A DNA stretch of 64,000 bases, taken from assembly GCA_905178155.1 (NCBI GenBank), contig CAJINV010000006.1, forward strand, positions 2,954,658 through 3,018,657, in the 5' to 3' direction. Origin of the DNA: Amoebophrya sp. A120. Lineage: Eukaryota; Protista; Dinoflagellata. Below are positions 1,161 through 34,790 of the stretch, piece by piece. A program made the translations under genes and the position numbers. Position 1 is the stretch's first letter. Each line of letters begins with the position of its first letter. Below the pieces are notes generated by a model. That model was given only the letters and a program-made list of their open reading frames with translations. It ran no database searches and was not told the origin of the DNA.

Positions 1161-1167
1161 CTTCATA

Positions 1168-4100
1168 CGAGCTTGGCGCAGCAGAAGAGTAAGAAGCTGA
1201 AGGAAGCGGAATTGAGAATCGAGAAGGAGAGACGCGAACACACGGCGGAGAAGGAGCAGCTGGTGAAAAAAGTCCGGATTCTGAACACGACAAAAATTCC
1301 GGAAATGACCAAGAAGATCCGGTATGAACTGCAAAAGCATCGTACTAGTACAAATTGCATTACAAATTTTCTCAGCATGACAAATGCAATTTGTAATGCT
1401 GTTTTACCTTAGGAAGAAGATTTGTCATGCATATTTGCAATTAGTACGAGTACGATACTTTTGCACAGGATATCCGGCTACTGGAGAAGAAAAACGCGGT
1501 CTACGTGAAAGAACTATCGCCAGAAAAAACTGTTTCACTGTAAACTTGTAATGCAGAGAATGCATCTCACAAGTGTTTGTCTTGCTACACATGCAAGACA
1601 GTGGATTCTTAGCTGTGTTTTCCCTTAGGAACCTTGCATGGCAAATTTTCTCTGTCATGTAGAGCAAACCTGTGATGCAAAACCTGCAAAATCCTTACAG
1701 TGAAACACTTTTTTCGTACGATAAGAACTGAAGGAAACCGAGAAAAAAAACGCGGACCTGAAAATTTTGGTCCAGACGAGCGGCGTAAGTGCCGTGGGGT
1801 GTGCCGCTGGTGCGAAAAACGATTCGTCCACGACAGCACAGCAAAGAAACACTTCTTCTGCGCAACATCATGACTCTCTGTCCATCTCCCACCACACTCA
1901 CGCGCAAAAACTCCAGCCGCTGGCGCATATCCAAGAAAAAAAGATTGTCCGGTATAAGTTTCTTGGAGGAACAGCATGACAAATCCGTTCTCTGGCATGA
2001 GAGCAAAAACCTGTCATGCGCAGATGGTTGTACGGAAAAACGCCACTGAATGGACCTCCCAATGCATGCCCAGCATGACAGACGCAATCATCTTGCAGGT
2101 TGCGCATCACAAACAATGTTCTTTTTTTCGATAGCGCAGCAAATTCGACTACTGAAACAGACGGAGGAGGACCGGCAAGAGCTGGCGTGGAGTATATCAA
2201 AGAAAAAAAGTTCGTCACGATCACTGATGCGCATTTTTGCATTGCAAAACTTTCGGTCATGCGTAAAAATGCACCACAGCCAGTGCCAGACTTCCTAAGG
2301 GGTTTCCCTAAGTTGTACTGTTTCTGCAATACAAGTAGGAAAAGTTGTCATGCTAAAAAAAATTGTAGATGCAAAGCCAAAGCCAGCAAGTTAGTGATTG
2401 TGACAAACTTTTTTCCCTCCATAGAAAAACCGGGAGCTGCAGTGCCGTATCAACTGTAAAAATGTCTGGGTCTGGAAGATTCTGACACTTGTCATGCACG
2501 TTTTGCATGAGCCATGACGTCTGTGATGCATACCCTAGCAATGCAGATTTTTTGAGGGCTTCTTGATGCCTATTCCGCATGGCAAATGCCTTCTCAGCGT
2601 AGCAAAAATTGCACTCCCTTTGCTACTCATGCAATACAGATTTTTTTGGAATCCAAATGCAGCATCACAAGTTCATTCTTCCAGTAGACCCAGACATTTT
2701 TGCATTTGATATGCCGGGTGTTCGATTTGGAAGAGCAGTTAGAGGTTTACCGGACGTATGCCTTGCAAATACGTCTGGGTCTGGAATAATTGGAATTTGC
2801 GATGCAAATTCTGGAACACACAAAAATTTGTGTTGCCTGAGCGCCACCCGTTGCCCATTTCTTGGTACGCAAGTAGGAACAAGTTGCTTATGCGGGACAC
2901 CAGGCATCAAGTAGAGGCGTGCCCAAAACCTGTGATGCTTTTGCCTGCATGAGACACCATTTGCCTGATCCGAAATATGCATGACAAACAATTGTGCACT
3001 CTTCCAGACCCGGACATGTTTGCAATGGATAGGACGCAGATCCAGTTGCTCATGAAGCAGCAGCAAGGCCAAGGAAATTCAAATTACAATGCTGATTCGG
3101 CTACAGGAAGTACAAGTAGTGCAACAGGTGGAGCTCTTCTTGTGCCACCAGCATCTACAACTTCTGCGAGCGGGAGTGAGGACCGAAAAGAAGCAGCAGC
3201 TCATGTAGTTTCGTCACTACATCAAAGCCAAGCTGCCCATGAAAAAAATGCTGTCCCGTCTACTGCGCCTGCTCTAACTTCTTGTTCTTCATCCCTCAAG
3301 AACGACGTGAGCGAGGAAGGAAGAATGGACCAAGTCGCACCGCCAGGAACAAAAGATGTAGTTGTTTCCCCGCCGGTTGCATCCGCGACCGCTCCAGAAA
3401 TACTAGGAACAGATCATAGTACCACACTTCTATCCCATCTACCGGCGCGTGCGTTGCGAAGCAGTGTTTCCGTGACGGCGGAAAGGAGAGGAACCACAGC
3501 ACACCAGCAGGGGGCACGACCAGGCGCTCCGCCCCCAGCGTCGAAAAATCAAGTGCAGAAAGACTTGTACGGAACAAGTTTTGATAACAGGACTGGTCGT
3601 GGTGCAAGAATGGGGAGTAGTGGTCGCAAGCGCAACTCTTACGTCGGTGAGTACAACTCTAGTAGCCGCTCGAGGTCAGGATCGTCATCACCGGTGAAAA
3701 TAAGTCCGTCGATAGCTAGAACTACAGGTCCTCGGGAGGGGCCGCGGAGAGATCAAGATCCAGCTTCAGAGAAGACAGCTGGTAATATAATAAAAACCGG
3801 AGCTGCTCCTGTGGCGGTGGCCGCAACTAGTAGTACGGCAGAAGCATCGTCACGAGCCCCGCCGACCGGAGCAGCGGGGAAAACCACACCAAAAACATCG
3901 TCCCCCACGAAGCTGTATCAAGTGCAAATATGTCTCCGTCTGGAAGGATGCAACTTGTGATGCTACGGTCCAAAGGTAGCCTACCTTTGGACTCTACATA
4001 TATCAAAATCTGTATTGCATAAACAGTAAAAGAGGTGTAATGTCGTGTGCTACGCAGAGAGGGCATTTCTCATGCGGTATGAGCATGATCAGAAAGCCCT

Positions 4101-7100
4101 CGCAATATCTCTGATGCTAGGGCATGCATCACAGACCTCATGGGTCATGCAAAATCTGCATGACAGACATACTCCTGCATTCTTCCAGATCCATACTTTT
4201 TTGCAATCCATAAGCTGAACCCCAGTCCGGACTTCTGGACGAAGCAGATTCACAAGCTGGCCGCGCGAGGGGGAGATGGTGCACCAAGCTCTTCGTTTGC
4301 CTCTATCAGGGGGACGAAAAACCTCTATTAAAAAGAAAAATCCCCCCTCCCCGCATCGGAAACGAAATTTGTGATGCTGTATTTGAGTACACAAATCGAC
4401 TTGTATTGCTAGAAGGCCAAGAGACGCAGTTGTGGCCTGAATTGCAGGGAATTTGTCATGCTGTTTCCCACTTCCAGTTGCCTCGCGTCGTGCTGGAGAT
4501 GCAACACTTTCCCACGCTAGCTAGCACTACAGTCCGCATCTTTTGCCTTCTAGCATCACAATGCTGATTTGTGACCACAAATCTGCATCACAGACTTCCG
4601 TTTTGATATGGGGAGGGGGGATTTTTGTTCTTGATAACCTCGCGGCGGCGTCGTGGTCTCCAGCCGGGAATAGCAATAGGATCAGAGCTATGCATTGCAA
4701 ATGTCCCTGGATGTCTGGAAGAGTGCAACTTGTGATGCTGCATTTGGATTCTAGAAAAATCTGTGTTCTTGCATGAGCAGCAATGGGTGGAATGTCATTT
4801 TTGCTACGCGGTAGTAGGGGTATTTGTCATGCGGAATAGGCATGATCAAGAAGCCTGGAAAAAATCTGTGATGCTAGGGCATGCAACACAGATCGATCAC
4901 GGCTCATGCAAAACGTGCACGACAAGTCTCAGAATCATCTTCCAGACATCCAGGGATCATATCTGCATTTGATAAGAGCTAGCGGTGCCGGAGATCATGA
5001 CCCCGCGCCGGTGCAGTTCCAAGACGCCCCTGTGGCGAAGCTTAGCACCCTTGGAACAGCAGGGTCATTATCAAGTGGGGCGGCCTCTTTTTCGACATCT
5101 TTGCCGTCGATGAAAAAGGACTATTTACTTGAGGACTTGCTAAACCGCCACTCCGATGTGGACTTTCACCTGACGAAAAGTGCTACTGAGTCCTTGGAAC
5201 TGCATATGACATTGCACAAGAACTACACCCCTGCAGGAGCTTGATTGGATTCGTCATGCGAAGGCGCGATGGACATCCCAGCCGGTGCTACCTTGAGATA
5301 AGTTAGTAGGGCTGCCACGCATGACTATGACAAGCTAGCGCACTCCAAACCGAATTGCATTCCGTGATTGGGTTTGTCATGCAGAAGCTACGTAGTTCTT
5401 TCCACTGCTGTTGTTTTTGTTGCTGTTCATCATGCCAACATACAAATGAGGAGGAGAAGTAGAGGAACTTGTGCATTGTCATACTGCAGGCTTTGCGGAA
5501 GCAGATCGCGACTTTGCGGAAGGAGATAATACCCTACGTGTACACGAACGGAGACGACAAACCAGATGAGGCGCAGGTGGAAATACAAGTAAAAGAACAG
5601 CAGACCGGACGTCGAGAAGAAGTGTTAAAAGAGGCAAAAGCAGCTACATCGCTGCAGCAAGACAGGAACCACGCCCACGTTCAGGAGAGGGACAGCCACT
5701 CATTCTTGTCCAGTAGCACAGAAAAGAGCGATGTTGGCGTTGGCCAGGAGCACGTAGGACCACGCGAAAGAGCTACTGCCACAAGTGCGCCCATGTTCAA
5801 CAAAAATTTGCTCTGTAGCGAGAACCACCTGGACTACCGAAAACAAGGTAATAAAATTACAGATGCATCCGAGGAACGACAATGTGAAGACCTGAGTGCT
5901 GGCCTCTGTGCTGGTATAAGAACATCAACCAGCAGAGGCACTGATGTGAAAACAGACCTGAAAGCGATTGACGACATGCGGAATTTTATCAGGAATTGGA
6001 GCTCGGCGAAGTTTGAAGAGCAGGATAGTAAAAACAACCACGAAAAGATTATGCAGCAAGACGAGCAGGAGATGGAGAACAACGCCACCAGTGACATCAA
6101 CCTCTCGACCACATCTTCAACAAACGCGGTAGAAGTAAAAGCAAGAACATCGTCGTCCACCAAGGCCGTACTAGCAGAGAAAAACTACACTAGCTCCTCA
6201 TCTTCCTGCGAGAGTCCCAAGCAAGTCCCCTGGGCAATTTCTTCCTTCGGCGGAAGATTTTTATGCACTGCAAAAATGTCATCTGGGCTTCTGGAAATTT
6301 GTGTTTCTGTTGATAGTCGCATCCGCGTAGGGTAGCTCCTGCTTGCATGGCATAGCAGCATCAGAAGCTCTGCGAGGCACGAGCTCATTACAGACTCACT
6401 TTCGAAGCGCATGACAAACTGAGTTTTATCTTTTACAGCGTGACAAAAAAACTGGGTAGTCGTATTTTATTATGCATCACAAATCATGATCCTCTTCCTC
6501 GCTGTCCTTCATCATTCGCATCACTACAAATGGATCCCGACCCAGATCTTCGATAATTTGCAATGCATACTTTTTCGGCAGTAGCAACATCACGAAAAAT
6601 ACAAACACTGGCCTGCTCGTCAACAGTAGCGGCTCGGCGAATATCCTGTGCAAAAGTACGTACTAATCGCAGTCATGCAAGACAAATTTCTTTTTCAAGC
6701 TAAATCAGCATGAGAAATTCCATGTGTCATGCCGAGCTTTGCAATACTACGAGTGCGATACTTTTGCAGTTCATAGCGAATTATACAAATTTGCAGGAGG
6801 AGGTAACGTGTGACGACCTGGCACTGACCAACGTTTTAGAAGTAGACGACCAAGTTTTACTTGTGAGCAATAAAGAGCAGCAAGATCATCTTCAACCTGG
6901 TGAACAAAATCATCTACGAAGGACGCTAAAAGCTGCAGATGAGCAGGCCCCCGCTGCTGCACCAGGACGAGGACCAAACCCTGCTTCATCTGCTGGCGCT
7001 GCAGCACGCCCAGGATCTGCTTCTAGAGCAGGCCAACATCAGTCGAGTTGTTCTAGTAGAGCAGGCCGCTTGGACTCCATTTCTGTAAATCAGAGCCTCG

Positions 7101-10100
7101 GAACGATGACCGAAGCGTCTTCGGGGGTTCTGTTTGCCTCCGTGCTCGCAGGAAGCTGCGAAGTAAAATCGGCAACGAGCCGCAGAAGCGAGCAGAGTGC
7201 GATGAGTGGGTGGCAAGGTGGTAGTGCCACTTTTGTTGGCGGTGGAGGAACTGAAGATCATCAAAACGCAAAAATACAACTGCAAAACCCGCCAGCAATT
7301 GCAACACAGAGGAGCACGACCGACAACTACCAGCAGGAACAAGGTTTCACCATCCCGCAGAGCGGTGGTAGTAGTAAGAGAACGGGTGGAGCGTCTTCGG
7401 GCGCCTCGGAAGATAGTAAAGTAGACCACCGGACGAGCTTTCTCACGAGTTACCACTCGCTCTACCTCGACAGCGTGGTTTATGGAAGCGTCAGGATTGA
7501 AATCGTAAAAGTTGAATTAGTTTGTGATGCATAAAATGCAACCCACACAGTGCCTGTCTTGGAGAGTAGGCAAGGGAGGCAGATTTCAAGCCTATTGAGG
7601 GGTAGAAATCGGGCTGCTAAAGTAGCACGACAAAAGGGATCTTCCTTACCCAAATAGCATGACAAACTGGATTTCGGTTCTACCCAAATTTGTCATGCGC
7701 CACTTGGAAACTGGTTTACAACTGGCATCCGTTTTATGCATCACAAATTATTTCAACTTTTAGGATTTCGATCCTGACGCTTCCATATGGTTTTACAGCC
7801 GGCGGGGACCACGAGAAGTAGTCGAGACGACGGCGGGAAGACAGAGAATACACACGGAGGTGGAGCTGCAACGGTTTTCCACAATGAAGACCTTTATTCG
7901 GAGCAGAACAGCACGATGGGACAAGACCTAGCCGCTTCCGGGGGTATGATTCCGGCCGGCCCCCCATCCGTCGTAGAAACCCACGAGTGGTCCTGTCACG
8001 AGGACTCCGATGCGGTATCAACTGCAAATATGTCCAGGTCTGGAAACTTACTTGTGATGCAAGGCAGGGAACATTTCATTAGTGCGCACACTGTATTGCG
8101 CTCCTGTCAAGCATGACAAGTGTTTCCGCGGTTCTGAGTTGCGTACTCCGCATGAGAAACTGCGCTTTCGCATTACAGCCAAGAGGAGCTCATCTTCGCG
8201 GCCACGCAATAGAGAGTTCAGAGCCAACACCCAGACAAGCATGACAACTCTCGGAATTTTCCAGACTCAGACATACTTGCAGCGCATGCGCGGACGAACA
8301 AGGGACCATCAACTCAGGTCGTGCCAGCGATCTTCATATGGAGCGGTTGGTCGGGGCACTGGAGCACGCGACGGGCGGTCCTACTGCTGCTGCAAGTGAT
8401 TTTTCGCCGCGACGAGGGCCCGTTCTTCTAGTAGCGCACGAAGAGAAACAAGAAGAACCTCCTGCCGTGAAGAAACAAGGCGCCCAAGTAGAGATGAACA
8501 ACGATGTTGACGTGGACCACTACGATCATCGCGCGGCCGGGGACAACATCAACGGCGCAACTCCTGAGCGTCTAGAAGTTGTACCCAAGAACGAACCTTC
8601 CTACGCCGAGGAAGTGGAGGAAGAAGTTCGGCTAGACAACATGATGTCACAACCTACACAGCAAGAAAACTGTGTTACAGCTAGTACAGGAGATTCACAG
8701 ATGAAGTTTGGCACCACGGACAAGGACAACTTCGACCACCTCGTCCACTGCGAAGATGACAACGCCAACAACAATATCGAAGATATGGCGTTCTCAACCG
8801 TTACATCCTCAACTGTTACATGGATTTGTGATGCAAGAACGGCAACAGTGAAAGAGGGGACCTTGCGCGTCTTGCATGACAGATTTCGCACGGATTCTCA
8901 GCCTGTTGGGCTCTTCGAGAATTTGTATTGCGAAGCCGCTTGATCATCGTGTCGATTCTGATTGCAATTCTGCATGACAAATCATGTAACAGTTGAAAAT
9001 GTAACATTTGAGAACGCCATAGAAGAGGAAATTTTCCAGTCCCTTGAAGATATGGAAGTGAAAAACAGGTTTGCGACTACCGCGAACCCGGACTACCTAT
9101 CAAGTGCAAAAGTATCTAGGTCTGGAAGAATGCATGGTTGTCATGGAAGTTTGGCATGACTCTTGAATCTGTCATGCACGTTGCCCAAGCGCTCCATTTT
9201 TCTTTCATGCAGAAACGCAGTTTGTCATGCAGAATAGGCAACAACTAGAAGCTCAGAAACTTGTCATGCTGAGCCAGCACTTGTGGCGTCATCATGATAC
9301 GCCACCCAGCATCACAAGTTTCCAGACCCAGTAGACATTTTTGCATTTGATACTATCCGAGCTTTTTCGATTCTGCGGTGGAAACGGAAACGGAGGTATC
9401 AAATGCAAATATGTCTGGGTCTGGAAGATTGTGAGACTTGTCATGCTTGTCTGGCATGACCAAAAAGTTTGTGATGCGTTTCCAAAAAGAGATCCTTTTG
9501 CCTGTCATGCAAAAACGCAGTTTGTCATGCGAAAAACGCAACACAAGGAAGCGCAGATATTTCTCATGCTTGGCGGTGCATTGCAGAGCATTCACTGTTC
9601 CCAACGCAGCATTACGAGTTTCCAGACCCAGTCATTTTTGCAGTTGATAGGAGGTGTGTGATGCGGAGGAAGATGAGCAGCATGGGGATGAAAACCAAGA
9701 TTGTCCACCTCGTGGATCATCCGACGTTGGTAATATCAAAGATTCCACTTCTACTACTTCTGCGACCGAGCAAAGCGAAGAGGTGAGGACTTTTTCCGAC
9801 GCTTTAAGGACCGCATTGGAGAAGGAAGTTGAGAGAAAGTTTGCTGGTGAAAATGACGGAGCGGATTCTGTTTATGCATTGCAAATATGTCTGGGTCTGG
9901 AACGATGCAAACTTGTGATGCGGATGCTGGAACACGCACAAATCTGTATTGCGTAGTCAGCAAAAGGTACCTGATTTTTGTCTCCAGAAAAGGGCATCTG
10001 TCTTCATGCGGAGAAGGCATTGAGAAGCCCCCACAGAGTTTGTCATGCTCTGTGTGCATTCCAGACCTTTTTGTAGATGTGAAAGATGCATCACAAATGT

Positions 10101-13100
10101 CTAACTTCTTCCAGACCCAGACATATTGGCAGTGGATTCTGTTTCTCCCAGTGCAATAAAATCTTCTTCCAGTCCTGGCAAGAAACTAGAACACCATTGT
10201 CATTCCACAGCAGCAGAAATGAACCCCTCGTGTTCCTTGTCAGCGAAGAACCCCTCGCCCCTATCGTGAGGAAAAATCCCCCCTCCCCATATTGAAAAGG
10301 TATGTTTCCAAAAATTTGCGTTGCGGATTCGAGGTCACAAATCACATCTGTATCGCAAGAAGACAAGGGCAGAAGCTTCCGCCCCGTTATGGAAGCGATT
10401 TGTCATGCTGTTGGGCCTAAAGGAGAGCCGTTTGCCGTGCTGAACAACTAGGCCCGTACGCCCCTACCTAGCCTGGGGATCTGGCCGCCATGCCTCCCTG
10501 CAATACAAAGCTGATTTGTGGCCACAAATCAGCATCAGATATGGGGAGGGGGGATTTTTCATTTTGATACCCGCCCCCGAAGAAGCGACCTCTCCCCCCC
10601 TTTTTCACGAACGGAAGGCAAACGGCGAGTTCTTCGTCCTTCGCTGCGAATGGTGATTATGCAAGAAAAAATGTGAATGTAAGTCTGTAATGGAGAAAAT
10701 GCAAAACTGTTGACACTTGTCATGCTGAATCTGCGTCATACTCATAGGCTACTTTCATACGTGTTTCCGCGTGCAACTAGTTGCGCATGACAGGTTTTCC
10801 CTGTAATGCCAAACGAATCTGTGATGCTGCTCTTGCTTCCTACAAAGTTACACTTACACAGTTTTTTTCCTGGATAGTGATCTTGGAAAGAACTACAGAA
10901 GCGGAATTTTTAATCAGAAACATCAGCAAGGAGCTTTGATGTCCCCTTCGCGAGGAACTAGTAGCTCCTCAGCACAACAAGCGTCTTCTACTCTGCACAA
11001 AGCCACTGCAGCGTCCAACTCCCGGGCAACTGCGAACACGGCCACGCTGAAGCAGCAACAGTATCAAATGTAAATATGTAGTCTGGGTCTGGAAACTTGT
11101 GATGCTAAAATCTTGATGATGGAAACAGTTCCGAATGCAACTTAGCATGACAACTTTGCAGAAGGAATGCTTTCTTGTAGGCAATCCGCATCAGAAACTG
11201 TGTGTGCGCATGTACAAAAGAGGCTACGACTGTTGTAGCTTATGCAATACAGATTTTCATCTAGGTATGGAAACTTAGCATTACATCCGGACCCAGACAT
11301 GTTTGCAATGCATAAACAGCAAGCCGCGGGGTCGAGTACTGCTTCTAAAAGTGTTGAAAACAAGAAACTGATTCTCGCTTCCACAAGGATCGTATGAACT
11401 GCAAAAGTATCGTACTAGTAGAAATTGCATTACAAATTCACTTAGCATTACAAATTGAATTTGTAATGCAGATTTGCCTCAGCAAAGAGATTTGTAATGC
11501 ATAAACGCAATTAGTACGAGCACGATACTTTTGCACTGCGTAGATCGTGAAAACGGAAGCAGAAATCGCGGAAATCCGGGCGAAATCGAGGATCCACACG
11601 TTTTATCCTGTGCAAAAGTATCTGATACTCGTATTGCAATCATGCATTACCAATCTTTGTCTTAAGGTAAACCCGCATTACAAATTTTATTTCTCATGCT
11701 GAGAAAATTCGTAATGCAATTTATATATACGAGGACGATACTTTTCCTTTTGCAGTTCATACGTTTCCCGCTCCTGGCACGAATAGTAAGCCCAAGCCAA
11801 ATAAACTGGTACCGCAGCATATCCTCAGTAAAAACATCCTCACCCCAGAGTTGTCATGCAGATTTGCAACGGCAGGAAGATTTGTAATGCGCACCCCAAT
11901 GAGAGGCATTTCAAATCGTGTTTTGGAGGTTCTGATGCTGTAAACAGGATAGGTACATGGGTTTGTGATGCGGCTGCACTTGCTAGACTGCACGAGGAAC
12001 TTGTCGTTGTCATGCGTGACTCCCAAAGCTTCTGGATTTGTGTTGCAAGATCCCGAGCTTTACTCTGGTGTGGGGACGTTTTTACTCGCAATGCAGCAGC
12101 GTATTGACGTCAGGAAAAAGAGTCCCAATGAACAACTGCAGGAGCAAAATATCCTGAGTACAAACGTCCCCGCGCCAGAGTTAAGATGGGAAATCGGCTA
12201 TACAAATCAACAGCAAGCTCTGGCTGTTGCAGCGCATGACAACTGTGGTGGGTGCGCAGTGTAGTCGCATTCACCTAGTGCAGAAGCATCACAGATCTAG
12301 CAGCTCATGCGGATTTGAGCATCACAGATTCCGAAACGCAGTGAGAAAGCGCTCCTTTTGGGACTCCGCATCAGAAACATTTTGAGCGTGCAGATTTGCA
12401 TGACAAGTCTGGGATGGGGACGTTTTTAATACACAGGATACAAAATTTGTGCAAGGGAACGGGTGCGGAGGTAAGTGAATTCCTTTGCGCGGCTGGAGCA
12501 CCTGGGGCGATGCAGGGTACGAGATAGCACAACTCCCCCATCCCCTCATTTGTATGGTATGAGCAGCAATACAGCACCAGCGGAAATGGAGCCTGCCGCG
12601 CATGACAAATCTTCTACACACGGATTGTAGTGCTGTTTGTGTGGTTCCAAAATTTGTCATGCAAACTGCGCTTACAGACAAGATGTGGATTTGGGTTTTT
12701 GCATCACAAATGAGGGGGAGGGGTCGTGGTTGTGCACTTTCATACAGTGGCAGGGGCAAACAGGAGTGGAGGTGGATGACCAAGTGAAAGCGTACATGGA
12801 GATATGTATCAACTGCAAAAATGTCTGGGTCTGGAAGAGTCGGAACCTGTCATGCACATTTTGCATGACGCGTGAGGTCTGTGATGCTGGTGCTCGCATC
12901 ACAGAGTTTTTGAGAGCTTCTTGATGGTAATTACGCATGAGAAATGCCCTCTCCGCGTGCCAGGAGCTGACTCGTCTTGCTGCTCATGCAACACAGATAT
13001 TTTTAGAATCCGCAGACAGCATTACAAGTTCCACTGTTCCAGACCCAGACATTTTTGCAATCCATAATATGAGAGAGAACACGACAGCTCCCCCTCCCCC

Positions 13101-13346
13101 TCTTCTGTAATGCAAAACACCAAATGCACAACCACATCTTGGTCTTCCCTGCAAGGATTCATTGTTTGCACGACAAATTTTTGAAGCTCCAGCAGTACCA
13201 CAGTCCGCTCGCAGGTTTGTCATGCCGAAGCGACATTTCTGCCGTTGCTTCTGTTGCTGCCCATGCGGTAGTTTCAATGCGGGTGGGGGGGAAATTGTGC
13301 ACTCTCATACGAGAACCTGAATTCGCAACTGGAGGCGTTAATGTGA
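1168..13346 (+). CDS. Large low-complexity/coiled-coil protein gene (5' end upstream of window), split by 27 TAT..ATA introners
   Basis: Removing element + 5 nt at 1323-1472, 1515-1723, 1928-2133, 2195-2423, 2448-2711, 2757-3031, 3916-4212, 4326-4636, 4689-4974, 5205-5483, 6262-6569, 6642-6775, 7481-7787, 8016-8288, 8784-9021, 9098-9352, 9397-9649, 9873-10138, 10262-10569, 10658-10876, 11062-11314, 11393-11542, 11604-11761, 11820-12093, 12150-12440, 12518-12744, 12803-13309 gives one frame (LAQQKSKKLKEAELRIEKERRE...KKIR|LLEKKNAVYVKE|LKETEKK...MENLNSQLEALM*), TGA at 13344-13346. No recognisable domain. Confidence 0.85.
1323..1472. mobile_element. Introner family B (TATGAACTGCAAAAGTATCGTAC..GATACTTTTGCACAGGATA), ~150 bp
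   Basis: TSD TCCGG. Other copies start at 6642, 11393, 11604, 14687, 17284, 18880, 27889, 29530, 31445, 46500, 47108, 48167, 51803, 53850, 59262, 60070, plus a partial copy ending near 116/1167. Confidence 0.95.
1515..1723. mobile_element. Introner family H (TATCG..AGAAAAAACTGTTTCACTG)
   Basis: TSD AGAAC. Other copies at 29907-30153 and 30920-31134. Confidence 0.9.
2448..2711. mobile_element. Introner family A (TIR TATCAAATGCAAAAATGTCTGGGTCTGGAA), ~37 copies, mostly 250-300 bp
   Basis: TSD TGCCG here. Other copies start at 2757, 3916, 4689, 6262, 8016, 9098, 9397, 9873, 11062, 12807, 14921, 15600, 16981, 17484, 17809, 18578, 27492, 28901, 29233, 30248, 35049, 35392, 42424, 43206, 45140, 45477, 46185, 47631, 48836, 49571, 51152, 51996, 53117, 58200, 58521, 63810. 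Confidence 0.95.
4326..4636. mobile_element. Introner family D (TAT....AGAAAAATCCCCCTCCCC), ~310-340 bp
   Basis: TSD ACCTC. Other copies start at 10262, 18178, 30564, 32970, 49163, 50273, 53498, 58858, 59635, 60291. Confidence 0.93.
7481..7787. mobile_element. Introner family E (TATGGAAGCGTCAGGATCGAAATC), ~305 bp
   Basis: TSD TGGTT. Other copies start at 16071, 28528, 41779, 52741, 54409, with a diverged copy at 22394-22645. Confidence 0.93.
8784..9021. mobile_element. Introner family I (TATGGCGTTCTCAA)
   Basis: TSD GAAGA. Related copies at 36839-37108, 21313-21550 and 22136-22362. Confidence 0.9.
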
Positions 13347-14543: not shown

Positions 14544-17500
14544 ATGGCGACCAGCATGATGAGGAATTCATTATTTGCAAGCAGAGGCACCAGCGCAGCC
14601 GCAGCGTCGTCACTTCTCGGTGGCCCGGCCATGATTTTTTTCTTCTCTACCATTCTCTTCCTCGCACATCAACCGGTGACGGCTTTTATCAACTGCAAAA
14701 GTATCTTACTAGTAGCAATTGCAATACAAATTTTTAGCTCAGCATGACAACTGGAATTTGTCATGCTGTTTTACAATTGGCATGGAAATTTGTAATGCAT
14801 GATTGTGATTACTACGAGTACGAAATACTTTTGCACAGGATAGTTTTGTCCCGCTGGCAAGTGTCCTACCAAGATGTGGGCTCTGAGGACTACGTGCTCA
14901 CGATGTCGTGGTACCACGATTATCAACTGCAAAAATGTCTGGGTCTGGAAGATTCTAAACTTGTCATGCTAAATCTGAAGCATGCAAAAATCTGTGTTGC
15001 ATGATTGCCAAAAGTCGTCCAGTTTTCACCAAGTCGGGAGGGAGTTTCTCATGCAGGATAGGCATGAGAGAGATCGCACAGAATCTGTCATGCTAGGTCC
15101 TGCATTCCAGACCTCATGGGTCATGGAAAAGCAGCATGACAAATTGCGCATTCTTCCAGACCCAGACATTTTTACATTTGATAACGATCCCCAGCTCGCG
15201 ATTGTCGGGCGTGACCTAGCGAAAAATCCCGGCCTATGCTGTGCAACAGCGTCCCCATCCCAGCGTTGGGAAATCTGCAAGACAAATCAACAAACCTTGG
15301 CTGTTTCGCATGACAAGTTTTGGCTCGCAATGTCGCCGCGTTTAGCTAGTGCAGCAGCATCGCAAATCTAGGTCTAGCCTCTTATGCTGTTCCGAGCATC
15401 ACAAATTTGAATTTCAAAACAGCACTAGAAAATGCGTCCCATGGGGCTCCGCATGAGAGGCACTTGTAGCATGCAGATTTGCATGACAACTCTGGGGCGG
15501 GGACGTTTTTACACAGGATACGGTCAGCAGGACGGATCGACCTCGAAGACCAAAGCTGCTCTAGGGGTGTGCGACCCTCAGTCCACCGCAAAAGCGGCCT
15601 ATCAAATGTAAAAATGTCTGGGTCTGGAAACTTGTGATGCTGGGTGGCGTCTCATGGTGAGGCTACAAATGCTGGCTCAGCATGACAAGTTTCTGAGCTC
15701 CTAGGTGTTGCCTATTCTGCATGACAAACTGCGCTTCTGCATCTTCTTCTTCCACTGCGTGTCTCCACCTAGGGGTATCGGCAGAGGCTAAATCTGTTCT
15801 AACGCCCAGGTATTGGCAGAGGCTAAATCTGTTCTAACGCCGACCCGCCAGGAGTTAAATGGTACTACTACTACTACTACTACTACTACAACTGCATCTT
15901 CTTCTTCACAGAAAAACCAAGCTCTTGGGTAACTTGCATGACAGATTTAAGAGTCATGCCAGACAAGCATGACAAACATGAATTCTTCCAGACCCAGACA
16001 TTTTTACATTTGATACGGCCGACGGGAAGCTGTATTGGGCGCCCAGGATTTTTCCGCAGCCGGTTTCGGCTATGGATGTGTCAGGATTGCAATCGACAAA
16101 GTTGAAATAACTTGCAATGCATAAAATCGATACCAATTGGACCCACAGTTTCTAGTCGGTGCATGACAAATTTTATCCGTAGTACCGGAGGCCAGTTTGT
16201 GATGCTGTTTCGGGCAAAGGGGCTCCCCTCTGTCATGCTAATCAGCAGCCCAATTGTTCTCGACCCTTACCAGCACTACAAAAATCTGCTTCTCTTGCGT
16301 CCCCTGCAATAGAGGCAATTTCTGCGTTGCATTTCATGCATGGCAAACTATTTCATCCTGACACAACCATATCGGCTGAGGTGACGAGAAAAACCGGGAT
16401 TCACTTTGCTTCCGTCGACTGGCAACCCTGCGGACACAAGGACGTATCCTGAGTAAAAACGTACCCACACCAGAGTTAGGATGAGGGTTTTGCAACACAA
16501 ACCTACGAGTTTTGTGCGTCACGCATGACAAGTTCAACTCTGCAGTGTAGTGCAGGTTAGCAAGTGCAGCCGCATCACAAATCCAGCTGCTCCTCCTGTT
16601 CACAGCATCACAAATTCCAAAACACGATTGGAAATGGCTCTCATGGGGATGCGCATTATAAGTCTTCCTGTCTTTGCAAATCTGCATTACAACTCTGGTG
16701 TGGGTACGTTTTTACTCAGGATAGGACGTCGTGATTTGTCATGGCGAGTCCCACTACGACTTTCACCTCTATTACGTCTCGCAGGCGGAGTTGAATGGGT
16801 ATACGTGCAGCAATCCAAACCCGGTGTGCCCAGATTTGGATGACACCAACCAGAGAAACCACAAGTTTTACAAGCTCATGAAGGGCAACATTCCCTCCTT
16901 CGCGGACAAAGCCACCGGAGACACGCAACAGTTCAACTTCTGCGTGGACCCGACGAGCGCGATGCCGAACTCGGGCATCCTATCAAATGCAAATATCCCT
17001 GGATGTCTGGAAGGATGCCAACTTGTGATGCTGCCTTTGGATAATTCTACACGAAATCTGTATTGCGTGAAAAGCAGTAAAAGAGGTCCACTCTTTGCTA
17101 CGCGGAGAGGTGGGCATTTCTCATGCGGTATGGGCATCGGAAAGCCCTCGCAGAATCATCACAGACGTCGTGGGTCATGCAAAAGCTGCATGACAATAAA
17201 CTTCTGCACGACTCTTCCAGACATCCAAGGATATTTGCATTTGATACATCCACTACGGGGACAAATCGGAAACGCTTTCCGAGTATCCTGTGCAAAAGTA
17301 TCTGATACTCGTATTGCAATCATGCATTACAAATTTTTTTCTTGAGGTAAATCAGCATTACAAATTTTCTTTCTCATGCTGAGGAAATTTGTAATGCATT
17401 TATACGAGTACGATACTTTTGCCATTCATACCGAGTGGAGAAACCCGGTGACGGTGCTGGGGTCCTACGACTGCAAGTTGACCTATCAAATGCAAAAATG

Positions 17501-20500
17501 TCTGGGTCTGGAAGGTTGGAACTTGTCATGCTAAATCTAAATCATGCTAAAAACTGTGCTGCGTGATTGCTAAAAGTTGTCCACTTTTGACCTAATCGGG
17601 AGGGAGTTTCTCATGCAGGATAGGCATGAGAGAGATCGCACAGAATCTGTCATGCTATGTCCTACATACCAGACCTCATGGGCCATAGAAAACCTGCATG
17701 ACAAGACTGGCAATCTTCCAGACCCAGACATGTTTGCGTTGCATATGACCTTTTTCGAGCCCATGTTCTCCTGGAAGTGGGTACAGGGGAAGACGGGCAG
17801 CGGGGAGCTATGCATTGCAAAAATGTCTGGGTCTGGAAAAGTTGAACTTGTGTTGCATGTCTTGCATTCCTGAAAAATCTGTGTAGTTGCACAGCCAGCA
17901 AGAAAGGCGCTACTTTTTCGTCCTGCAAAAACGCAGTTTGTCATGCGTGCTACGCATCAGACGGCGTCAATCATGCTTGGCTGCACTTGAGAGCGCCAGT
18001 CTCATCCAAACTTTAGCATCACAAATTTCCAGACCCAGACATATTTGCATTTGATAGGAGTGGCCCAAATACGACAGCGGCCGGATCACATACGACGAGA
18101 AAAATTTCCGCCCTTTACCGGACTCCTGGTCGGTGGAAGTCGACCGGGTGGCCTGCGCGACAACCAACCCGAGCTCGTATCAAAAACAAAAATCCCCCCT
18201 GCCCATATCGAAAACGAGATTTGTCTTGCTGTATTTGAGTACACAAATCACATTTGCGTTGCAGTGGAGCACTGCACGCAGATTGCAAGCCTAGCTAGGG
18301 GCCTTTTGGTGTAGGCGCCTAGCATGGTAGACGGCTGCGCTGTAAACCTTACAGCGTCCTCACAAATCGCCTGCATGGCGTGACTGACAGCCTGGACTTG
18401 CCTCCTTGCAAGACAGACGCGATTTGTGGCCACAAATCTGCGTCGCAAATTTTCAGACGGATGCGCTTTCAATATGGGAAGGGGGATTTTTCCTTGCGAT
18501 AGCTCGGATTGCAAAATCACGGTGACCATCCGCGGCAAGCGGTGCGGCGCCAGCGGGTGCGGGGCCCTGCCGCAGGATATCTGCTGCAAATATGTCTGAG
18601 TCTGGAAGATTGCCGCGCTTGTCATGCAGGTTTTGCATGACCCATGAGGTCTGATTTGTAGGACATAGCCTGACAAATTCTGTGACAGTTCTATAATCAT
18701 GCCTATTTTACATGAGAAACTGCCTCTCGGTTAGGTCAAAAGTGGACAGCTTTTGGTAATCATGCCACTACTACACAGATTTTTGCATGTTCTTTCAGTG
18801 TTAGCATGACAAGTTGCAGAGTTTCAGACATCCAGGGATATTTGCAATGCATACAGGAGTGTGGCCTGCAACGGAACTGTATGAACTGCAAAAGTATCGT
18901 ACTCGTATAAATGCATGACGTCGCCTCGGTAGTGTCGTGGCCTCGGTACGCCACTACAATTTGGCGCACCGAGGCTAGAAGAAGTTTCTTTAGAACGCGC
19001 ATACAAAATGGCGCACCGAGGCCAAAAGTGCCAAGTTTTCGGAGTGGCCGCCTCGGTGCACCGAGGCCGACGGCCTCGGTACGCCAAATTGTATGCCGGA
19101 ACGAAGCAGCAGACGGGCGGAACACAATCACGAAAATGGAGAAAAGCGCTCCGGGCGCAGCGGTGCCAAGATTGGTTTTTTTGGGGTGAGACGGTGAGAC
19201 ACGTGAAACAAATTCGATGTTGTTGCCGTGCGTTTGGGGCAGTGCTCGTCGCGCGACGCCGCGAGCAGAAGCTCCCGCGGAAGGCAGGGGGCGACGCAGG
19301 CGCGGGCGTGTGCGAAGCGAAAAAACGCACGCGAAATCGCGAAGCATGCAAGCGCAGAAAAAATCAAAACGGAGAAACTTCTCCAGCCCGCACACAGTTG
19401 CGCTGCGATGCGTGTCTGTAAAATTAGGACTCTATAGTAAAAGAAGCTGGTCGCAAAAGTTTAGCGCAAGATAGTCCCGCGCGAAAAGGAAAAACAAAAA
19501 GCGCGGCAACAGATATAAAATAAAACAGAGCACAGCGATGAAAATGAGCAAAATCCTGAATAGGTACCGGCATGGCTGCAGGCGCGCTGGCATTATTTAG
19601 TAATTGAGTAAGCTGCGCGCGGCTATAGTTACACGGTGGAGCCACAGATTATAGATCGGATAATATTGCAGTGCGGATGACATAAAAAGGCGCGAACTAG
19701 ACGAATTGCGTTGCAGAGCGGAACGGGACAGACAAAAAAAACTACAGGCTGCGCTATGTACCACACAAAAAAAAAGTAAAATCTAGTAGAGAGAAGCGCA
19801 GCACTGAGGGGTGCGCGAGCATGGAGTGAGTTGCGTCCAGTGTGAGGCGGAGGTGGTGCAACGACGTGAATGAGCCGAAGCTCATCCAATGCGTCAGATT
19901 GGACCACCAACGCGCCCCCACCTGGGCGGAAACAAATGAAAGGCAAGTTTTTGCAGGAGAAAGTAATGATCTTGGTTCATAGTACTGGAACTTACAGAAA
20001 AAAGCAGAGCAAATAAAATCAGTTGCGGTGAGCGAAAGTCGCAAGCTGGTGCGCTCGACGTTCGCGACGCTGCACGCTACTCACACCGCGTCCAAGAGGG
20101 AATCGGGGTGGTTCGCCATCGTCGCTGCCATTTCGCGAAATTGGACGGGCAGGTCGGCGCGCGCCGCGACTTCGACGTGCCAGGCTCCGCACAGGACTCC
20201 CGGCAACCCGTTTGCCACCTTGGCTTTGCGCAGCTTCGTCCCCGTCAGGTGGACACACCAAACGGGATCGGCAACCGTTTTGGCGTAGTTGACGGTCGCG
20301 CGCAGCTTCGCGCGCTCGTCGCCAGCTTTGTTATACCACCAAATCTTCGCGCGCAGGCCGCCGGCACTGTACAGGACCGCGTACATGCCGCGCGAAATGA
20401 AGCGCACCGAGTCCGCAACCGCGCGGAACTGGCCCACGTCGCGGTAGTCGGCGTCGCCAAGGTCGCGAAACATGGCCGGCGGCTGCTGCAGCGGCGCTGC

Positions 20501-23500
20501 GATGTGCCAAGCTGCGGAGCAAGCGCTTGGAGACACGCGGGGGGGAGCGGGCGCAGCTTTCCCCGGCGGGCCGGGTGGGCCGATCGCGTCTTGCAGGACC
20601 TCGAGCACGCCAACAGCGGGCGGCGGCGCAGCGGCTGCCTTTTTGGCGGCGGGCTGTTTCGCTTTCGGCGGCGCGGCGAGTCGCCCGCCCGTCTTCGGCG
20701 GCGGCGTTTTAGACGGAAGCAGGGGCGCAAGCGTATCCGCCGCCGCCGGCAAGAGGGTCGCCGCGGCTGGCTTCAAGTTGTCCCGGTGCTGCCCACGATA
20801 AGTGCGCCCATCGATGTCAATGTCAGCAAGCTTGCCCGTGAGCGCCACCACTGTCCCGGGCCCGTGCCAACCTTTCCGCCCGAGCTGCGTATTTTTCAAA
20901 AATACGCTCTGCCCGATTTGCAGCTCCGGCGGCTCCGGCCGTTGCCCCCCCTGCTTGTTGAAAAACTGCTTGCGATTCTTGGTCGCGTTGGCTGCCGCCA
21001 CGTCCTTGGCCGCAGCAATGGACGCGGGGCGGTCCTGCTCAATGCGCTCCACCGCAGCAGCACGTTCGCCGAACAGCGATTCGGCGTCACTGCTGTCGGG
21101 CGACGGGGAAGAAGCGCTGTCGCCCGGACGCGGCGTCTCGAGCGCTGGCTCCTCGTCGGTCGAAAAATCGGCGTCCCAGGCGCCTTCGAACTCGGCCCGA
21201 AGAGCGGGCAAAGGGTCCGGCTGCGCGGAGCTGCTTGCAGCGATGGACAACGCGGCAGCTTGGTCCAACGTGCGCAGGTCAACGCCGTACAACAGGCGCG
21301 CCGCGCTTGTTTTATGGGGCGCTCAGGCGCGACGCGCTCAGCCGCGGCAGGTGTTGCCATGCAAGCACGCAGTGCGACGGAGGCAAAGTAACTGCGCCCC
21401 GCATGAAAAACGCGCGAGAGGCCACGCAGCAGGCAAATGGAAGCGAGGCCCGTGAGCAGTGCCAGCAGTTTACGTGCCTCGCAGGGGCTGTTCTTTCATT
21501 GCATGCAAAAGGGCGCCGCGGCTGAGCGCGTAACGGCTGGCGGCGCCATACTTGCCGCGGGCGCGGCGGGAAGCGGCTGCGTTCGTTGCCAGCTGCACCA
21601 GCGGAACATATTCCGGCCAGCGGCTCAGGTCCCGGCGCGCCAACTGGAGGGAAACGCGACCCACCATTTTTTCGGCCTGTCCGTTGGACATCGGGCGCCC
21701 CGGCGAGATCGTCGTGTGGCGAAACCCGAGAGCCTCCGCAAGGCGCTTGATGGCGGCAAATTCCGTCCCGGCATGAACACGAAAGCCGCAGCGCACGCGG
21801 CCCCCCGGTGATAGCAAAAGCCTGGCGCTTTTGCCGAGCCGGGGGCGAATGCGGCGCGGCTGTTCACTTGCTTAACCGTTGTCCGTGTGGTATTCCAGGC
21901 CAACCCCGAAAAAGCTCACCAGCTTGACCTGTCGTAAGGATCGCAAAAGCGTTTCGATTTGGAAAAGCAAAGGCGCGGCGCGCCTACTGAATGCAAAAGC
22001 AAAAGCGCAACGAAGAGGCACGGCACCAAAAAAAAAAAAGAGGGAAAAAACAAGAAGCATACCCAGGCACCGTGGACGCACGCCATCGACTTCCGCTCGA
22101 TGGGTTCCAGGAAGCAATAGCCCGTGACCCACGCCTATGGCACTCGCAAACGTTGCCCCCCCAGCTCTCTCGCGCATGAATTTGCAACGCAAGAACGGCG
22201 AGGCAAAGCGGAAACGGGTAGATTGCGCCCTTTGCGTTACAGAGGCAGCACAGATTTAGGCACTGTCTAGCCCTGCGGATAGTTGTCATGCCAGAAGCAG
22301 CTTAATCGCGGCGAATGCCAAAGCGCGTAGCCGCTGGGAAGGCAACAACTGCGAACGCCATAGCTCGACCGCCACAAAAAGGTATCGGCAACTTATGCAG
22401 GCGCCGAGACCGAAATAGGCAAAATCAAAAAAGAAAAATCTGGCGCCCCCCCTGGCGGGGTGCTGGACTCTCGCTTTTCGATTCTGACGCCCTCGGGCCT
22501 CGTTGGCCAAACTAGCCGTGGCGGCATGCTTGGGCGCGTCAGAATCGAAAGGGGCTCCGGAGGGGGTGACTTAGTTTCGTCCCTCCCCCCAAGGACTGCC
22601 AGAATTTTTTTTGCGATTTTGTCGATTTCGATCGTGGCCCCCATACGGTTTTCGACGAGCGGCATCTTTTTCAAGTCCAAAGCCCAGCGGTCGAGGGGCG
22701 CGGCCTGCTCGAAGGCGGCGCGCTGGAAACCGCTGCGGAAGGTCGCTGGCGCGCTGAAGGGCGCAGACCGCTGGCAGGCCAGGCAATCGGTTTTCGCTTT
22801 CGCCGCTGCTTCTTTCATCCCACGGAAATACACCTTCCAGCGCTGCAGGACAGATAACGTCGCCTCCCGCCCCCCGTGCGTCTCCTCATGCGCGCGGCGA
22901 GTGAGATCCGCGGCGCGCTCGTCGTCCCAAACGATTTCGTGCCATTGTCCCCGCAGGCTGTCATTGGCTTTGCCCAGGAAGCGCGTCCCCATGCGCACCA
23001 GAATTTTGCCGTCGCCCCACATGAAATCCTCTTCCCGCTGCTTCCACCAGCGGGCCGCGTAGCGCCCCAGCGGCGCCGCCAATGGTTCCCCCTGAAGCAG
23101 CGCGGCCATCTGGTGCTGCGTCACCGGAAACAGCTCCGCGGACGCCGGGTCTGCTGCTTCCAGCGGAAGTTCGGGCCCCGCGTCCTCGCCCAGGAACAAG
23201 AGGTCCGAAACTTTCGGTGAAGGCGGGCGCTTCGGGTTGCGCAGGTTGCGCTCGACCGCGACAACCGGCACGGCAGACGGGTCGAACATGAGGACGCGGC
23301 AGGTGAAGCCGTTCTTCGGATTGACCGAGCCGACGGCTCGGCCAAGTTGCCCGCTGCGATTCGCGTCCGGGTCGGTGTTGTTGTACTGGTCGTACAGTTC
23401 GGCCCGGGTTGCGTCCGCCTTCACCTGCGTGGCGAACGCGTGCCAAACCTGGTAATTCCCACCCCCAAACAGCGCGTCGGCGGCTCCCGCTCCGCTCGTT

Positions 23501-32940: not shown

Positions 32941-34790
32941 GTGTTGGCGAGTCGTGTGTATCTTTTTTTTGTCAAAATGAAAAATCCCCCCTCCCCATAT
33001 CAAAACGGAAATTTGCGATGCTGATTTGTGGCCACAAATCAGCTTTGTATTCCAGAGAGGCATTGCGGCCAGATCCCCAGGCTAGATAGGGGCGCATGGG
33101 TCTAGTTGTTCAGCATGGCAAACGGCCCCCCTTTAGGCCCAACAGCATGACAAATCGCCTCCATAATGGGGCGGAAGCTTCTGCCCTTGTCTTCTTGCAA
33201 GACAGATGTGATTTGTGACCTCAAATCCGCAACGCAAATTTTTGGAAACATACCTTTTCAATATGGGGAGGGGGGATTTTTCCTCTCAATATTTCTATGT
33301 CAGAAGTTAAGCTTTTTTTGTGTGGAGGTTGAGGGCAAAAGCAAAAGCAAAACCATTTCGCCCTCTACCCTATTGCTATTTAAATTTTATTTATAGACGT
33401 TCTTTTTCTGTTACTGTTTGACTTTGAGTTTGTTCTAGAACTTCTACCCCAACCACCAATTCTTTTTCGTTCGGAACTTTTTCCCTAGTGTTCAGCGGGT
33501 CGTGAATTTTTTTGTTCACGTCGAGTTTTTGTTCTCTAGTAGGTAGCTCTACAGCTACTTTTTTCAAAAACATGTGTTAAGATTGCGAAACAAACAATGG
33601 CTACTTACGTAAAAAATGCTGTACGTAAAAATGTGTGAAGATGAATTTCGACCATAATAATTTGAGAAGCACAAACGGAACGGAGCCAGGAGAAGCTCCG
33701 GTCGTGGTCAGCCTGTGAATACAATGCGTCTCGGAGTGAAACACTTCAGGAACAGAATCTTCTTCAATTATATTGTCCTCTCTTTCGGTTTATTGAACAC
33801 ACAAGCTGCGCCTCCGTAGTTCCGCAAGACAAAAGACGAAAAACACTCGGCTCTTCGTGCGGACGAGCGGCTTGTGCTGTAGATACGATTAATTACGTAG
33901 TAGTACCTCTACAAGAACATGCGACGTAGTAGTGTCGGTGCTAGTGACTAGTATCTTTAGCAAAACTTCATTCATAGCTTGTCAGAGCCCCGCTCTACTA
34001 CTTCATCGGTAAAAGTAAAGTATACCATCGGTGTTTTCCTTACCTCGATTCAACAACATCGCTTGCGTCTCATCTGGAAAGCTGTCTGTCTGTTTGGCGT
34101 TGATTGTGATTCGGTTGGTGTGCGGGGGACGAGATCGGGCTGTTTAGTGCCACATAATTATACAAGAAGGCGTGCAAATGATCAGAGTCGGTATGGCTGT
34201 GTATCCTTGTCGTGGTTCATCTTCATCTGCCGTACAAGATAGATGCAGAGGCTGCCACCTGGAATCGGTTCTTCGTTCTTAGTACAACTCAATCGTCGAA
34301 GCCACGATATAAAAAATAGTCGTACTATTCTTTCGTTCCTTGCAAAACTATCGCTCAAACATGGAAATTGTTTGCCTCGGTTTTCGTGCATCATGTTGCA
34401 GCTCGTGCAAGGAAGCACTTTGCAAGACCTGGGTCTTGTCTTCTGCAGAGCATGTAAGTCTAGTGCTGAGTAGTGTTATTTGAGTATCTTCCTTAAAACC
34501 AAGTAAAAAACAGTCGTAAAAATAAAATCCACAACTACTTCTGCCACAGCTGCAACTCATCCTCCCCTGTAGTTCTTCAAAGTAAAAGAATAAGAATCCT
34601 CTTCCGGGCGTCGTCTTGTGCTTTTCTTTGTGCAAGCAGTTGTATTCTTTTTCCCCACTTGCTGACACGACAGAGCGGAGTTTTTGCGCAAACTAAGCTC
34701 CTTTTGACAACCTTAAAACTAACGAGATTTCTTTTCGAACTGAACACACCAAAAAACTTTCTCTCACTCCACTAAAGAGCTTTTCTTGAA

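Follow-up and report, generated by a model that had tools for sequence, protein, structure and literature searches.

Introners in both orientations and a likely common cut register in genes of Amoebophrya sp. A120

The 64,000-nucleotide stretch of DNA analysed here (the window) carries on its + strand a reading frame of 1698 codons, at 1161-12804, that is present only once a series of inserted elements is taken out. Conceptual removal of 26 elements, each together with one copy of its flanking 5-mer, turns positions 1170-12804 (+) into residues 163-1857 of the database protein P0002 with 0 mismatches, and the protein encoded in the window is identical to this Amoebophrya sp. A120 protein. Residues 1-162 of P0002 were not located within the window, and no Pfam family was matched by this part of the gene. 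The exon at 3037-3915 shows 100% identity to P0002, which is named as Amoebophrya sp. A120 and so places the elements in A120 genes. A preliminary description, made from the DNA letters, had stated that removal restores the frame; this holds, with the refinement that the element leaves together with one 5-mer. The removed lengths of the 79 copies that lie in open reading frames are spread over the three remainders modulo 3 as 23/28/28.

In the window as a whole there are 97 elements with inverted repeats reading TAT…ATA and with 5-bp duplications, two weak candidates (33791-33885 and 44031-44403) being left out of the counts. These are not chance occurrences, as a search for the TAT…ATA, TSD and TIR pattern gave 93 candidates in the window, whereas each of 10 order-3 Markov controls yielded 0-3. 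Ninety of the 97 fall into 8 multi-copy families and, with sizes of 134-416 bp, a 5-bp TSD and many copies in families, the elements have the structural features of MITEs. The left end reads T, A and T in 97, 96 and 95 of the 97, TAT being in part a search criterion, and A occupies positions 11-13 in 80, 84 and 89. The 5-mer repeats, perfect in 73 of 97 and imperfect in 24, never extend past 5 and show no marked base bias. The end triplets are altered at 7/498 sites, compared with 21/415 mismatches in the repeats (Fisher p=0.0017), and the first T of TAT is unchanged in all 83 of 83 copies, its partner A being altered in 4. The elements are Amoebophrya A120 introner elements (Farhat 2021), with which they agree in each of the four respects compared, and the introner system itself is already known: in PMC7789003, A120 is reported to have 29,850 copies with non-canonical ends, whose repeat starts with TAT followed by 7 variable nucleotides and at least 3 A, with direct repeats of 3-5 nt. 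A Pfam scan of 23 long open reading frames in element-free blocks gave no transposase; the hits were H2C2 zinc-finger matches below the cut-off, which sit in an element with ends unlike those of introners, and one weak unrelated match.

Relative to their host genes, the 90 family copies in the window are oriented 47:43, and all 8 multi-copy families are present both ways (17/17, 7/9, 5/5, 5/5, 3/4, 3/3, 2/3 and 1/1). The preliminary description had proposed that introners work in both orientations from two inverted pairs, and both pairs are confirmed. Family B occurs forward at 1323-1472 (+, TATGAAC…CAGGATA, repeats TCCGG at 1318-1322 and 1473-1477, predicted intron 1322-1476, hairpin z=-7.2) and reversed at 6642-6775 (-, TATCCTG…GTTCATA, repeats GCGAA at 6637-6641 and 6776-6780, predicted intron 6641-6779, hairpin z=-2.15), and the reverse complement of the latter aligns end to end with the former and with four further family-B copies. 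Family E occurs forward at 7481-7787 (+) and reversed at 52741-53047 (-), both in + strand genes, with 264 of 317 alignment columns alike when flanks are counted. The elements at 1323, 6642 and 7481 all lie in the single frame 1161-12804. Removal of the first is supported by P0002 and by a contig whose length puts its start at 1169; that of the second by contig pieces in X1 and X3, which leave the expected 66 nt, and that of the third by 224 nt found for 224 expected, both being length arithmetic with which P0002 agrees. Removal of the fourth is seen directly as a joint, 52735->53048 (skip 312), in X1, X2 and X4.

The transcript evidence consists of assembled contigs (X1-X4) from two samples of one study, RNA-like by a tool's guess, while X5 consists of DNA-like contigs. 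All 25 displayed element joints in the RNA-like contigs, which cover four families in both orientations, skip exactly the element length plus 5. Twelve consecutive introners of one gene (14687-18853, +), among which families 0 and 1 are each represented both ways, are skipped in 12/12 cases in X1 and 11/12 in X3, and their joints have depth 0 in X5, whose contigs read through the elements at 2757, 5205 and 6262 with 0 differences. A single X1 contig displays thirteen introner joints over 48167-54006 (+), the element at 52741 among them, and also drops two canonical GT-AG introns, 50832-51107 (+, starting GTAC) and 52319-52681 (+, starting GTAT). Since both of these lie on the + strand, the transcript strand is +. 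X3 contigs have no joints across 47950-54120 and are uninformative for that span; the raw RNA run X8 gave 54 matched reads, 53 of them only partly matched, and was not informative. A canonical GT-AG reading of the elements themselves was ruled out, as GT/GC-AG ends are possible in just 5/97 in any register.

Where the 5-bp repeat is imperfect, the base that is kept bounds the cut. Among copies on the - strand, 15235-15520 mismatches at position 4 and keeps the upstream base (joint 15233->15525; registers 4-5), 17809-18056 mismatches at position 5 and keeps the downstream base (joint 17803->18057; registers 0-4), and the reversed family-B copy 48167-48323 likewise keeps the downstream base at position 5 (joint 48161->48324), as the contig does for the repeat of 52741-53047, also imperfect at position 5. 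For 2195-2423 (+, positions 3 and 4 differing) and 12518-12744 (-, position 4 differing), P0002 is obtained only with registers 4-5. Register 4 is the sole register shared by all 25 joints, with a chance probability of 0.032 from the joints alone and of 0.0025 when two piece ends and the two P0002 cases are added (at most 0.015 after multiplication by six); it is bounded by three cases per side, two of them taken from the annotated protein. It is therefore likely that the copies share one register, N-TAT…ATA-NNNN, a result new here, in which the cuts fall 1 nt ahead of TAT and 4 nt past ATA. Because of this register the intron opens with N-U-A, like a canonical GUA (both GT-AG introns above open with GTA), and ends without AG. 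GT/GC…AG ends in register 4 occur in 2/97 elements, which sets them apart from canonical U2 introns. A purine follows the 3' cut in 52/97, indicating no preference, and an association of the first base of the intron (+1) with its last (-1), p=0.034 from a sparse 4x4 table, is not relied on.

One family-B introner (18880-27459, +; 8580 bp with a perfect 5-bp repeat) is split by a nested element of ~8.4 kb. The composite appears to be spliced as 8585 nt in one contig: an X1 contig has a loose end at 18886 and resumes with the letters of 27472 onwards and 27758 onwards. Because this interior is dispensable, there is no orientation bias and no strand-specific motif is found, the signal for removal can be placed in the symmetric ends. 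The preliminary description, which had named a strong orientation bias or a strand-specific branch motif as evidence against its view, went further, inferring that a terminal stem brings the two 5-mers together and acts in place of a branch point or pyrimidine tract. The window shows no such bias, and k-mer and skew tests near the 3' end of the elements gave no strand-specific motif (best 4-mer p=0.007 of 248). The inference is thus supported in part: the symmetric location of the signal stands, the stem may or may not take precedence over linear signals, and the asymmetric cut departs from a simple meeting of the two 5-mers. Orientation does not tell a stem from a linear signal here, because in mirror-image ends a U-tract and a branch-like motif are found whichever way the element faces: TTT lies at the same place in 66/83 copies in sense and 67/83 in antisense, and GCATnAC is found at 15-60 nt from the 3' cut in 46/83 and 37/83. 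The core stem is predicted to be paired in 79/83 copies, and the arms, which the preliminary description had suggested testing for compensatory changes, covary at positions 8-15 (617 against 593+/-5.4 in family shuffles), although transposition and subfamily structure would be expected to produce covariation too. Positions 4-7 show none (p=0.32) and are paired in just 212/388 cells. On the transcribed strand there is no excess of G·U over A·C (112 vs 120 ungapped, 60 vs 52 isolated mismatches), the sense duplex is not more stable than the antisense (p=0.28), and a whole-element energy test gave no sign of selection for RNA-level pairing (p=0.084). Arm duplexes as weak as -7 kcal/mol occur, and one such copy, at 3916, is removed according to length arithmetic and P0002.

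The explanation that we favour, with somewhat better than even confidence, is that the A120 introners, transposon-derived elements lying about equally often in either orientation in + strand genes, are likely cut at one constant register that their mirror-image ends determine. A DNA transposase would have inserted the elements in random orientation, creating the 5-bp duplication, and, since TAT-N7-AAA is read inward from either end, the transcript would begin N-U-A-U and end UUU-N7-AUA-NNNN either way. Least certain are the last steps, in which +2U/+3A may serve a U1-less U2/U6 spliceosome as a relaxed donor, with the terminal stem perhaps holding the ends together and setting the 3' cut by distance instead of by AG. 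Counting against this are the missing G·U excess, the often unpaired and non-covarying positions 4-7 and the tolerance of weak arm duplexes; in addition, the boundary placements of Table S4 in PMC7789003 could reflect an aligner preference for GT-like ends. The missing G·U excess and the tolerated weak stems also weigh on a non-spliceosomal excision, of the kind put forward for the nonconventional introns of Euglena, in which a dedicated nuclease/ligase would read the terminal stem, cut at fixed distances and probably release circles. We consider this rather unlikely, even with a stem predicted in 79/83 copies, covarying arms, no GT-AG requirement (5/97), fixed spacers that recall the 3-nt and 5-nt spacers around CAG/CTG in Euglena (PMC12501133, seen in part) and the report that U1 was not found in A120 (PMC7789003, likewise), since a cutter guided by structure would not need the U and A that the elements share at +2/+3 with canonical donors. 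Of the alternatives, this one lies nearest to the view of the preliminary description.

Less probable still are purely linear symmetric signals, by which a relaxed spliceosome would use an N-UAU donor and UUU-N7-AUA with GCATnAC as tract and branch, the hairpin being a by-product of the repeats. The same orientation result would be predicted, since TTT and GCATnAC occur both ways, and the missing G·U excess, the often unpaired positions 4-7 and the apparently spliced 8.6-kb composite all suit it; however, GCATnAC lies in range of the 3' cut in barely more than half of the copies, arm covariation exceeds the family shuffles, and, with AG missing, a ruler is needed for a precise 3' cut. That the elements were lost from DNA, or that empty alleles or artefacts of assembly account for the joins, could be argued from contigs, rather than reads, whose RNA status is a tool's guess. 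We regard it as very improbable, given that the same X1 contig drops two GT-AG introns, that none of the 12 displayed joints is present in the X5 contigs, which retain elements, that imperfect repeats settle in one register and that such introns are backed by RNA-seq in PMC7789003.

The available text of PMC7789003 proposes that a hairpin joins the exon boundaries and reports U2, U4, U5 and U6, with U1 not found; it calls the splice position variable or unknown, whereas here balanced orientation is combined with one register, and that text, figures aside, does not give orientation relative to host genes. Its top Table S4 motifs start N-T in 9/9 for A120 and TT in 9/9 for A25, whose repeat starts TTA. 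From the parts seen of Roy et al. (bioRxiv 10.1101/2020.10.14.339549), introners of Aureococcus and Polarella are likewise TIR/TSD transposons of which several classes form introns either way; however, they take GT/GC/GA and AG from the element or duplication and classes 6, 8 and 10 are biased to one orientation, whereas A120 copies need no AG and are unbiased. Euglena nonconventional introns (PMC12501133, in part) share direct repeats, a suggested MITE origin and a terminal triplet that is paired and keeps a constant spacing to each cut, but the triplets are CAG/CTG with spacers of 3 and 5-6 nt, and the 3' cut is followed by a purine, against TAT/ATA with 1 and 4 nt in A120. The A120 elements lack the N3-CDG…CHG-N5-6 and purine pattern and are thus alike in geometry without being members. 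Fritillaria borealis also has mostly non-GT-AG introns in a genome without a minor spliceosome, but, in the portion of PMC13326754 seen, that genome has U1, and its 3' ends are read by divergent U2AF paralogs, while A120 has a free 3' dinucleotide and no U1 was found in it.

A broader possibility, about which we are doubtful, is a U1-free, AG-free code, N-UAU…AUA-NNNN, in which the terminal repeats would define both cuts as an 'end ruler'. An inserted element would then turn into a seamless intron whatever its target or orientation, even when it carries an 8-kb cargo. Strain A25, with repeats unrelated to those of A120, would share the +2U/+3A start, which would point to the spliceosome as catalyst, convergent with the Euglena geometry. 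The findings bear on how tens of thousands of non-GT-AG introns are removed in Amoebophrya without detectable U1, a question posed since 2021. We found neither orientation neutrality nor the cut register in print, as far as the text of PMC7789003 was available. Balanced orientation limits the signal to symmetric ends; with a fixed register, a boundary that was ambiguous becomes a concrete code, testable genome-wide with existing RNA-seq. Together they make the removal mechanism testable, and also explain how transposons could come to occupy coding sequence at low cost.

The family-B introners at 1323-1472 and 6642-6775 and the family-E introners at 7481-7787 and 52741-53047 all lie where the preliminary description had placed them, and both pairs prove to be mutually inverted. 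Once reversed, 6642-6775 can be aligned over its full length with 1323-1472 as well as with four further family-B copies, and 264 of 317 alignment columns are common to 7481-7787 and reversed 52741-53047. Scanning the window for TAT…ATA segments that have complementary arms and a 5-mer on either side returned 93 candidates; 10 Markov controls gave 0-3 apiece. The set used here comprises 97 elements (84 non-overlapping candidates, minus 2 weak ones, plus 15 added by hand from relaxed scans). Not included are three composite copies, a degenerate one around 36.5 kb and two that the window boundaries cut. With orientation called from element interiors, after cutting 28 nt off each end, 90 of the 97 fall into eight families, and strand calls agree on 416 of 419 edges. 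Orientation counts per family are 17/17, 7/9, 5/5, 5/5, 3/4, 3/3, 2/3 and 1/1; none departs from 1:1 in this one window, and the strong orientation bias that would have told against two-way function is absent. Six long plus-strand frames, open only once the elements are removed, hold 79 of the copies (12/16, 6/8, 5/4, 4/5, 3/4, 3/2, 2/1 and 1/0). The ORF test assigns no transcript strand to the remaining 18, four of which lie within the span of a plus-strand contig. All six frames (1161-60349) being on one strand fits the blocks of co-oriented genes that have been reported in Amoebophrya.

Deletion of 26 copies, each with one 5-mer, yields residues 163-1857 of P0002 without mismatch, bearing out the claimed frame restoration, P0002 being an annotation of the same organism and not independent data. 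This A120 protein was the sole match to exon 3037-3915 (100% identity; 7985 candidates scored). Removed lengths of the 79 copies in frames divide 23/28/28 modulo 3, an even spread, so translation does not run through the copies. Contigs whose RNA origin is a guess (two samples from one study) contain at least 12 element joints in the first region (12 of the 15 matches listed, the others being DNA-like X5 joins between repeat copies) and at least 13 in the second (13 of 15, the others being GT-AG introns on the plus strand). All 25 element joints listed skip the element length plus 5. Those listed cover both orientations of families 0 (4 and 6), B (2 and 2), 2 (1 and 3) and 3 (1 and 3); family E has direct joints for two reversed copies, and its forward copy at 7481 follows by arithmetic. 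The copies at 6642 and 7481 correspond to exact gap lengths in the RNA-like contig sets X1 and X3 (66, 224), while removal of 1323 is based on P0002 and on a contig whose implied start is 1169. Loss of the elements at the DNA level is very improbable: the X5 contigs, which may themselves be the source of the assembly, have zero depth at the first region's 12 joints and read through elements 2757, 5205 and 6262 with no differences.

A perfect 5-mer hides the cut place, so that the register, the position of the cut within the duplication (0-5), must be read from imperfect repeats, present in 24 of 97 copies. With a mismatch at position 5, the contig retains the downstream base (3/3; 17809, 48167, 52741). 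At position 4 the upstream base is retained in 3/3 informative cases (15235 in a contig; 2195 and 12518 in P0002), copies 9098 and 10262 being silent, and at positions 1-3 it is again the upstream base (14687, 48836, 53117, 6262, 8016). Thirteen imperfect copies are uninformative, these two silent ones and eleven without a joint among the matches listed. Only register 4 is consistent with all informative cases, and the intron would therefore consist of one base, the element and four bases, beginning N-T-A-T; the window's two canonical introns begin GTAC and GTAT. The chance of this under uniform registers is 0.032 for joints alone and 0.0025 with four extra cases, or at most 0.015 after allowing for six registers. 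One common cut register is thus well supported. In the accessible parts of Farhat et al. 2021 (PMC7789003), Table S4 gives 9/9 predominant A120 motifs beginning N-T and 9/9 in A25 beginning TT, the A25 repeat itself beginning TTA. These starts agree with the register but may reflect aligner preference. A legend there calls the border variable or unknown, and Figures 3, 4 and S19-S25 may already imply the register.

The interpretation that the excision signal is the symmetric terminal stem, and not a linear branch point or pyrimidine tract, is partly supported, while the observation beneath it is confirmed. That the ends matter is suggested by end triplets altered at 7/498 sites, against 21/415 mismatches between repeats (p=0.0017), and by the family-B copy at 18880-27459, which holds a large insert (below). 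TAT/ATA served in part to find the elements, a circularity eased by these copies making up a census of continuous frames. Pairing is predicted for core positions 9-13 in 79/83 copies. The arms covary at positions 8-15 (617 versus 593±5.4, reached by 0/5000 shuffles) and 16-25 (p=0.007), covariation that transposition or subfamily structure also predicts. Other results speak against pairing: positions 4-7, about half unpaired, show no covariation (p=0.32), the terminal three pairs are predicted in just 55/83 copies, two copies have arms of -7 kcal/mol, the transcribed strand shows no preference for G·U over A·C (112 vs 120, and 60 vs 52), and sense arm duplexes gain no stability (p=0.28).

An enzyme that excises the elements by structure only is a less probable alternative. 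The covarying arms accord with it; the weak arms and the missing G·U preference do not. Removal directed by linear motifs alone seems somewhat less probable still. Element tests on the window copies found no strand-specific motif or skew, including the branch motif that would have counted against a stem, but TTT is offered both ways (66 vs 67 of 83 copies), as is GCATnAC within 15-60 nt (46 vs 37 of 83), so orientation alone does not settle the matter against a tract or branch point. We marginally favour a mechanism in which a U1-less spliceosome would read +2U/+3A of the intron as donor while the stem would fix the AG-free 3' cut by distance. U6 touches intron positions +2 to +6, for which the accessible part of PMC13326754 is a partial source. 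The elements' symmetric ends, balanced orientation and exact removal are themselves demonstrated. Their orientation may stem from random insertion by a TIR transposase, a behaviour established for MITEs; Pfam scans of long ORFs in the window's element-free blocks found no transposase.

Several composite structures accompany these copies. A family-B copy at 18880-27459, its perfect repeat retained, carries a GC-rich element of approximately 8.4 kb (18916-27341; TG…CA ends, short inverted repeats, 4-bp duplication), whose minus-strand ORF 22396-23664 gives a weak Integrase_H2C2 match (E=4.8e-05, below cut-off). It is possibly an integrase-type TIR element resembling an A120 family in the available portion of PMC12130899. 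One X1 contig runs from the left edge of 18880-27459 on into downstream exons, and a single gene appears to span the ORFs at 14.5-18.9 kb and 27.4-31.3 kb. In a twintron-like pair at 12803-13309, element 12807-13066 lies inside the opening bases of a family-6 element; P0002 reads into the inner element and RNA-like contig pieces restart at 13311, so the P0002 C-terminus is probably mis-annotated. A 3.1-kb insert interrupts a family-2 element at 60291-63718; the insert has terminal inverted repeats of ~52 bp (60551-60602, 63617-63668) and a 374-codon minus-strand ORF that gives no Pfam match. Positions 1-1167 probably represent the tail of a long intron: the window lacks P0002 residues 1-162, and these positions contain a family-B right end closing at 116, a palindrome of 151 bp with repeats (556-706) and, ahead of the exon, an ATA end at 1167. 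The GT-AG intron 50832-51107 contains introner subterminal motifs without clear ends and may be an old introner turned canonical. Element-free blocks hold direct repeats of ~440 and ~250 bp (71-74% identity; 55689-56895 and 38910-40142) and palindromic AACCTTCAGAAG units (56158-56420).

Aureococcus and Polarella introners are described, in the accessible portion of bioRxiv 2020.10.14.339549, as lying in either orientation with recognisable splice sites, with orientation bias stated for three classes. The search described in part of PMC9860276 admitted opposite-orientation insertions, and a tested code in Euglena combines fixed spacers with a paired triplet (PMC12501133, in part). The available portions of PMC12130899 and PMC11282704 yielded nothing on orientation or register of A120 introners, and a search of openly available papers and preprints, which covers Roy et al. 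in the bioRxiv version and not that of Current Biology, found no report of either for Amoebophrya. According to the parts of PMC7789003 available, the inverted repeats of A120 introners start with TAT, continue through seven variable bases and then have at least three A; the direct repeats measure 3-5 nt, and a hairpin is proposed to join the exons. The window copies match this description. The elements are members of this already known system and their behaviour is a real feature of it, to which the present analysis adds transcript-supported balanced orientation and a candidate fixed register.
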